From NCBI RefSeq assembly GCF_003334255.1, contig NZ_QOWU01000042.1: a stretch of DNA of 47,091 nt; one strand, written 5' to 3'. Below, one piece after another: positions 38,246 through 38,540 of this stretch (the stretch's first letter is position 1; the number at the start of each line of letters is the position of its first letter). The DNA comes from Escherichia coli. Lineage in GTDB: Bacteria > Pseudomonadota > Gammaproteobacteria > Enterobacterales > Enterobacteriaceae. The position numbers and the translations under genes are program-made. The notes under the pieces were generated by a model. That model did not search any database, was not told where the DNA came from, and saw nothing but the letters and a program-made list of their open reading frames with translations.

Positions 38246-38540
38246 GCCTGATGCGACGCTGTTGTGTCTTATCAGGCCTACGAGTTCAGTGCTGTGTGTA
38301 GGTCGGATAAGGCGCTTACGCCGCATCCGACAATAACAGCATTGCCTGATGCGACGCTGCCGCGTCTTATCAGGCCTACGAGTTCGGTGCTGTGTAGGTC
38401 GGATAAGGCGTTCATGCCGCATCCGACAATAACAGCATTGCCTGATGCGACGCTTGCGCGTCTTATCAGGCCTACGAGTTCAGTGCTGTGTAGGTCGGAT
38501 AAGGCGTTCACGCCGCATCCGGCAATAACAGCCTTGCCTG
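38246..38540. repeat. tandem REP/BIME array, three units of about 96 bp
   Basis: Three near-identical units, each holding an inverted pair of REP palindromes; ends 6 bp from the pepA stop. Confidence 0.8.

Follow-up and report, generated by a model that had tools for sequence, protein, structure and literature searches.

A BIME-2 array of variable unit number in the pepA-holC spacer of Escherichia coli

Organization of the pepA-holC spacer and its repeat array

The window analysed here (the whole stretch of 47,091 nucleotides) is a piece of the E. coli chromosome in which pepA, an intergenic spacer, holC and valS follow one another on the minus strand, with lptF lying beyond pepA on the plus strand. 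The same genes are annotated by RefSeq at the orthologous places. The pepA-holC spacer spans 353 nt (38194-38546) and its repeat array is located in the 3' untranslated region of pepA, the stop codon of which is at 38547-38549. The genes and the parts of the spacer are listed by position, each with the evidence on which it was placed.

34895-37750, minus strand: valS (open reading frame list, RefSeq)
37750-38193, minus strand: holC, DNA polymerase III chi, downstream of the array (open reading frame list, RefSeq annotation of orthologous regions)
38194-38223, minus strand: holC 5' leader, ending ...TATTTAAATCCACCACAAGAAGCCCCATAT-ATG on the minus strand (allele comparison)
38224-38245, no strand: degenerate partial unit on the holC side and start of the polymorphic cassette (67% copy in register, allele junctions)
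38246-38281, minus strand: Z2 REP of unit 1, with loop variant GTTGTG, 3 mismatches to the Z2 probe and -14 to -20 kcal/mol
38282-38297, no strand: 16-nt linker on the GTAG side of unit 1, with an extra TG relative to units 2 and 3 (alignment)
38298-38331, plus strand: Y REP of unit 1, GTCGGAT...ATCCGAC variant, -17 to -19 kcal/mol
38332-38343, no strand: 12-nt linker AATAACAGCATT (alignment)
38344-38379, minus strand: Z2 REP of unit 2, 1 mismatch to the probe, about -21 kcal/mol
38380-38393, no strand: 14-nt linker on the GTAG side of unit 2 (alignment)
38394-38427, plus strand: Y REP of unit 2 (alignment and fold)
38428-38439, no strand: 12-nt linker AATAACAGCATT (alignment)
38440-38475, minus strand: Z2 REP of unit 3 (probe scan and fold)
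38476-38489, no strand: 14-nt linker on the GTAG side of unit 3 (alignment)
38490-38523, plus strand: Y REP of unit 3 (probe scan and fold)
38524-38535, no strand: 12-nt linker AATAACAGCCTT (alignment)
38536-38546, no strand: degenerate start of a fourth Z2 REP, GCCTGACGCAA (alignment, 67-68% copy in register)
38547-40058, minus strand: pepA, leucyl aminopeptidase A, 503 aa, the upstream gene (open reading frame list, RefSeq annotation)

At 38246-38541, TRF detected a single array with 3.1 copies of a 96-nt period, 92% matches and a score of 497. A score of 46 was the highest reached by any other tandem repeat in the window of 47 kb. Unit lengths were 98, 96 and 96 nt by alignment, and start-to-start spacings were 98, 96 and 96 by repeat search. 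Every unit consists of two opposed REP palindromes, so that the array holds six REPs, three Z2 and three Y, in the order Z2(-) Y(+) Z2(-) Y(+) Z2(-) Y(+), with GTAG on the minus strand in the Z2 copies and on the plus strand in the Y copies. Read on the plus strand, a unit runs GCCTGATGCGACGC..GCGTCTTATCAGGCCTAC, a linker of 14-16 nt, GTAGGTCGGATAAGGCG..CGCCGCATCCGAC and the 12-nt linker AATAACAGCATT. A scan found four of the REPs, which differ from the y or z2 probe at 1-3 positions, and the probe consensus agrees with the description in PMC3333891; two Y copies were placed from alignment and folds rather than from the scan, and the Y REP of unit 1 is 4 mismatches from the y probe by manual count.

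Individual REP hairpins are predicted to fold with free energies of -14 to -21 kcal/mol and have the internal mismatch typical of REPs, and the spacer RNA on the mRNA-sense strand reaches -164 kcal/mol (z = -8.8 relative to shuffled sequences). The Y stem variant GTCGGAT...ATCCGAC differs from GCCGGAT...ATCCGGC on both sides of the stem, with pairing kept. The units differ from one another at several positions and are therefore distinguishable in reads. Through degenerate partial units on both sides, REP-derived DNA runs from 38224 to the pepA stop codon. On the holC side, 38224-38245 (CGCATCAGGT) consists of the terminal piece of an inverted REP arm and, after it, sequence resembling a linker. 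On the other side, REP-derived sequence abuts the pepA stop because 38536-38546 is the degenerate start of a fourth unit. The first REP hairpin of the pepA mRNA is formed by the Y REP of unit 3, which begins 23 nt past the stop codon.

REPs of E. coli are imperfect palindromes of 30-40 nt with a 5' GTAG, among which y, z1 and z2 types are distinguished (Ton-Hoang et al. 2012; PMC3333891). They are combined either into BIME-1, in which one y and one z1 REP are separated by a long L linker that often has an IHF site, or into BIME-2, in which y and z2 in inverse orientation are joined by short linkers and occur in multiple tandem copies, the number of which at a given locus differs among strains (PMC3333891). 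The array in the pepA-holC spacer is a BIME-2 cluster, as is directly visible in its sequence. GTAG is present on the own strand of all six REPs, and dot-bracket folds of all six contain an internal loop between the lower and the upper stem. The array is extragenic, placed after the pepA stop and ahead of the holC start, and a query containing it matched a median of at least 36 places per complete E. coli genome. Its y and z2 REPs alternate in orientation, its tandem copies (3.1 here) vary in number from 1 to 4 among E. coli, and its linkers, compared here by length, are short at 12 nt and 14-16 nt. In the alternation of its y and z2 REPs, in their GTAG and the mismatch in their stems, in the shortness of its linkers, in tandem amplification and extragenic position and in its variation among strains, the array resembles BIME-2 clusters at large. 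It differs from them in nothing essential, although its Y copies have the GTCGGAT...ATCCGAC stem variant.

BIME-1 elements likewise hold REPs in inverse orientation, but the single copy, the z1 REP, the long L linker and the IHF site that characterize them are all absent from the array. Membership in BIME-1 or RIP was rejected on these grounds: there is no z1 REP, linkers measure 12-16 nt, and a consensus search for the IHF site (WATCAANNNNTTR) gave no match within 38194-38546. The original prediction of a tandem REP/BIME array of inverted REP pairs, with this unit size and these limits and ending 6 nt from the pepA stop (38540 relative to 38547-38549), was borne out by TRF, alignment and REP typing and can be narrowed to BIME-2. 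The IHF site that it also proposed belongs to the L linker of BIME-1 (PMC3333891) and does not apply here.

The closest known counterpart is the holC-pepA BIME-2 of K-12 strains MG1655 and W3110, which has the same site and the same flanks but consists of one unit in a 159-nt spacer, with two REPs rather than six and without long spurious open reading frames. The locus is already catalogued as BIME-2 in K-12 and represents no new kind of element. Earlier work has also described BIME-2 arrays as such, the variation in their copy number, their binding of gyrase and their effects in 3' untranslated regions; what is added here is the exact anatomy of this array, its allele spectrum (1-4 units, or another repeat in about 26% of genomes), its age, being common to E. 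albertii and E. whittamii, and the link to published gyrase cleavage of the orthologous unit. In EcoCyc numbering, REP341 is the yjgN/valS element.

A promoter scan of 37700-38900 revealed no sigma-70-like promoter in the spacer, and in the same interval no site resembling an intrinsic terminator (a GC-rich hairpin followed by a U tract) was found on either strand. The holC 5' leader is the only part of the spacer common to all alleles and is moderately conserved across genera, as judged from a consensus of 86 Enterobacteriaceae spacers. Since no promoter was detected in the spacer and only about 30 nt upstream of holC are conserved, these results suggest that transcripts reach holC by crossing the array. 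In the terminator table in the supplement of bioRxiv 10.64898/2026.03.23.713779, the entry yjgN:pepA:holC:valS stands at a terminator downstream of valS, which fits a pepA-holC-valS transcript given the meaning that we assumed for that column. A literature search for a statement on a pepA-holC-valS operon returned nothing useful. Further downstream, holC and valS overlap by one base (37750, the last base of holC and the start of valS), which suggests translational coupling. The sole promoter-like site in 37700-38900 is a sigma-70-like site inside holC (37877..37848, minus strand), which could be a valS promoter.

Alleles of the spacer in E. coli and related species

We searched 5,426 complete E. 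coli genomes with a 901-nt query spanning the spacer and found the locus in all of them. A BIME allele, defined by one place that covers at least 80% of the query, is carried by 4,009 genomes (about 74%). Unit-number proportions refer to 59 chromosomes, sampled once at even spacing and classified by the span of the locus.

901-903 nt: three units, 27 chromosomes
805 or 794 nt: two units, 12 chromosomes
707-709 nt: one unit, K-12-like strains included, 5 chromosomes
681 nt: no BIME, 15 chromosomes

MG1655, with its 159-nt spacer, has one unit. A synthetic four-unit query was matched in a single piece only in strain E105 among the matches listed, the others stopping at three units. Copy number had been predicted to vary among strains, and the comparison of complete E. 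coli genomes confirms this, with one, two, three or rarely four units and an additional allele that lacks the BIME. Within the sample, unit number looked stable by lineage, being one in K-12 derivatives and three in O157:H7 and O145.

Alleles differ by whole in-register units and are mosaic in unit content. The K-12 unit corresponds to the Z2 REP of unit 1 joined to the Y REP of unit 3 of the present array, and one two-unit allele corresponds to unit 1 plus the Z2 REP of unit 2 joined to the Y REP of unit 3. The 903-nt allele, which is found in a genome labelled strain ST-131 among others, has a recombinant middle unit. The allele of strain 2012C-4227 (locus L004, spacer 245-490) is a decaying variant of the array: it has two units and an 11-nt deletion (GTGCTGTGTAG) by which its last Y REP loses the GTAG side. 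Judged from sequence comparison, the allele structures fit in-register deletion and duplication by replication slippage or unequal recombination between units. Amplification mediated by TnpA(REP), as modelled in PMC3333891, is a further possible route by which unit number might change, and GTAG and the stem mismatch, the signals needed by TnpA(REP/RAYT), are kept in all six REPs.

That the three copies are a repeat mis-expanded during assembly is practically out of the question: although tandem repeats can in principle be mis-assembled, we found nothing in favour of such an error, the units can be told apart in reads by their mutual differences, and the 901-nt stretch with its three-unit array is 100% identical in the independent complete genomes of strains 7/2 and TUM1223. 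The best match to this query had at least 99% identity in 1,497 records.

Chromosomes of the 681-nt class carry an unrelated insert of 103 nt between the same flanks (...GGATTTAAATA / ACGCAA..TTA), which contains CCCTCTCCCTTAGGGAGAGGGTTAGGGTGAGGG and replaces the array at 38224-38546 (locus L002, 245-377). The element is complete in 1,401 of the 5,426 genomes (about 26%), and its core of about 58 nt recurs as a dispersed repeat, at a median of 3 places per genome. No Rfam family matched this allele in a search of locus L002. From its GGGAGAGGG/GGGTGAGGG motif, the element is probably BoxC. A BoxC family of 56 bp and about 32 copies exists in E. coli (PMC2267715).

For a comparison beyond E. 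coli, the holC start was sought with a degenerate DNA pattern in one genome per GTDB species, and 86 Enterobacteriaceae pepA-holC spacers were extracted, which measured 64-455 nt (median 121). Three BIME-2 units are present in E. albertii (348-nt spacer), two in E. whittamii (259-nt spacer) and four in a divergent representative labelled "E. coli" (455-nt spacer). Because all three share both the units and the flanking remnants of the present array, occupancy of this site by BIME-2 predates E. coli. In Salmonella diarizonae the 98-nt spacer holds one REP, a Buttiauxella species has GGGAGAGGG-type repeats, and the Kosakonia spacers inspected and that of Raoultella terrigena combine an ERIC-like sequence with a REP. 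Crude motif probes assigned the spacers of the 86 species to REP-like, GGGAGAGGG-type and ERIC-like groups or to no group (examples are loci L009, L061, L025, L071, L050, L060, L084 and L065), and only the last 30 nt or so before the holC ATG are common to them. From these comparisons, the pepA-holC spacer is a recurrent landing site for small repeats, with no conserved holC promoter.

Proposed effects of the array on RNA and DNA

We hold with good confidence that the array is a non-coding BIME-2 cluster, one that would act through gyrase and through RNA structure and change in unit number by the mechanism proposed here. At the RNA level, the array would form the 3' end of the pepA transcript, folded into six stable hairpins. 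Such hairpins are expected to block 3'-to-5' exonucleases, which would stabilise the pepA mRNA, and might partly attenuate read-through into holC-valS, acting as a leaky attenuator or roadblock. Both effects would be stronger with more units, the number of which might shift by replication slippage, unequal recombination or the activity of TnpA(REP/RAYT).

These RNA-level effects are proposed by analogy with REP325, the element between yjdM and yjdN, which likewise consists of tandem Y+Z2 pairs between co-directional genes and the Rfam model of which (RF02564) matches two units here. REP325 is a partly Rho-dependent attenuator of its downstream gene, and it stabilises the mRNA of the upstream gene, with 3' ends forming a ladder inside the array (Harris et al.; bioRxiv 10.64898/2026.03.23.713779). 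In the same study, gene pairs separated by REPs had higher ratios of upstream to downstream expression genome-wide, with large scatter. By this analogy we infer that the array protects the pepA mRNA and damps read-through into holC-valS, and a role as mRNA stabiliser, as originally suggested, is plausible. REP325 differs from the present array in having six units rather than three, in its linker sequence and in its locus, and the orientation of its Y and Z2 REPs relative to transcription is opposite. Given this reversed order, results from REP325 may not transfer quantitatively. Any effect of the array must also be dispensable and may be small, since about 26% of E. coli lack a BIME at this site and K-12 has only one unit.

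At the DNA level, gyrase cleavage sites are over-represented in a subset of BIME-2 elements, with a preference for y REPs that persists under rifampicin (Sutormin et al.; PMC6379681). In the accessible part of Table DS3 of that study, the 83-bp holC-pepA BIME-2 of K-12 is listed with 2 sites for ciprofloxacin (Cfx), 1 for rifampicin + ciprofloxacin (RifCfx), 0 for microcin B17 (Micro) and 2 for oxolinic acid (Oxo), and most of the other BIME-2 rows visible there have 0 cleavage sites. The proposal that the array is a gyrase site therefore gains support from mapped cleavage in its one-unit K-12 orthologue. By analogy with that orthologue, the array is most likely a strong gyrase site. Its Y REPs would act at the DNA level as strong gyrase sites independent of transcription, and extrapolation from the single K-12 unit predicts that three Y REPs provide three gyrase targets.

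It is possible, although we consider it rather unlikely, that the array is instead a neutral passenger, selfish or slippage-generated DNA that a permissive spacer tolerates and that measurably affects neither DNA topology nor pepA and holC-valS. The readiness with which the spacer is filled by unrelated small repeats would fit such an origin, both among E. coli strains (BIME-2 or the BoxC-like element of 103 nt) and among the 86 species, whose spacers of 64-455 nt are REP-like, GGGAGAGGG-type, ERIC-like or devoid of these repeats, as would the range of 1-4 units without obvious constraint. Against neutrality, the K-12 orthologue is cleaved by gyrase in vivo, rifampicin treatment included (Table DS3 of PMC6379681). 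In addition, the REP hairpins are intact, the two sides of the stem having changed in compensation in the Y copies (GTCGGAT/ATCCGAC), and the array persists at the same site in E. albertii and E. whittamii.

A more far-reaching extension of the functional reading is that unit number (1-4), or replacement by the BoxC-like element, sets the level of read-through from pepA into holC-valS and the recruitment of gyrase and so constitutes a regulatory polymorphism. We regard this as doubtful. If it were true, lineages would differ heritably in the dosage of the chi subunit and ValRS or in local supercoiling, and holC-valS includes one essential gene. Irrespective of this, the spacer offers a handy natural allelic series (0-4 units or another repeat) upstream of holC-valS, which suits tests of the "terminator plus stabiliser" view of REPs.

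An RNA-level effect of a different kind would arise if the first REP stalled ribosomes at the pepA stop codon, leading to mRNA cleavage, ribosome rescue and less PepA. Liang, Rudd and Deutscher reportedly described in 2015 that REP-induced stalling of ribosomes at the stop codon lowers protein synthesis. The effect needs a REP hairpin less than 16 nt downstream of the stop, according to PMC12306157, which cites Liang et al. 2015. Although REP-derived sequence (38536-38546) does adjoin the pepA stop, this stretch of 11 nt is a half-arm with no partner nearby, and the first intact hairpin (Y, from 38523 downwards) lies 23 nt past the stop and so beyond the 16-nt limit. Stalling at pepA is thus very unlikely.

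Small RNA matches, open reading frames and other features of the window

Rfam model RF02564 (naRNA4) matched the array on the plus strand at 38301-38376 (80.1 bits) and 38397-38472 (82.2 bits), above its gathering score of 59.5. It also passes the threshold in two-unit alleles of other strains and has a weak match at 38231-38278, in the region of the degenerate unit on the holC side. Taken at face value, these matches would make the units genes for naRNA4-like small RNAs, the transcripts of which bind HU and condense the nucleoid as proposed for REP325, and REP325 is likewise built of tandem Y-linker-Z2 units (PMC4550694). However, the model joins a Y hairpin to a Z2 hairpin through a linker and describes any Y+Z2 pair, and unrelated pairs at 11392-11469 and 5151-5229 in the window pass as well, so that the matches restate the presence of Y+Z2 pairs and are not evidence of a small RNA gene. 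The plus strand on which they pass is antisense to pepA-holC-valS, with no promoter-like site in the spacer, whereas the sense (minus) strand scores 55.0 and 51.9 bits, below the threshold. Moreover, the linker of the array (AATAACAGCATT) is unlike that of the model, and REP325/naRNA4 had no effect on nucleoid volume or REP-REP contacts (bioRxiv 10.64898/2026.03.23.713779). We therefore regard the small RNA reading as highly improbable, and naRNA4 matches at this locus should be read as "Y+Z2 REP pair" rather than as a small RNA gene.

Three open reading frames from the six-frame list (at least 60 aa) overlap the array.

38228-38422, minus strand: open reading frame of 64 aa
38264-38563, plus strand: open reading frame of 99 aa
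38278-38511, minus strand: open reading frame of 77 aa

There is next to no chance that one or more of them, for all their presence in the list, is a real protein-coding gene: they overlap one another on both strands and are translations of repeated REP sequence, a Pfam scan of the 99-aa product gave nothing significant (best i-Evalue 0.019), the orthologous spacers inspected are all free of CDS annotations in RefSeq/PGAP, and the frames are truncated in one- and two-unit alleles and absent from the non-BIME allele. They had been called spurious from the outset and should be discarded from the annotation.

Four other REP pairs are present in the window, at 5151-5232, 11389-11472, 14646-14729 and 24612-24699, none of them tandemly amplified. 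Three are Y/Z2 pairs, and the one at 24612-24699 is a Y/Z1 pair and BIME-1-like. Antisense within the pepA coding sequence, Rfam RF02850 (Ysr276, a Yersinia antisense sRNA) is matched at 39306-39500 on the plus strand with 175 bits, which may merely reflect conserved pepA sequence. Elsewhere on the plus strand, the window contains a tRNA gene at 44588-44669 (Rfam RF00005, 59 bits) and a magnesium riboswitch aptamer at 21647-21762 (RF01056, 122 bits), which is presumably the mgtA leader.
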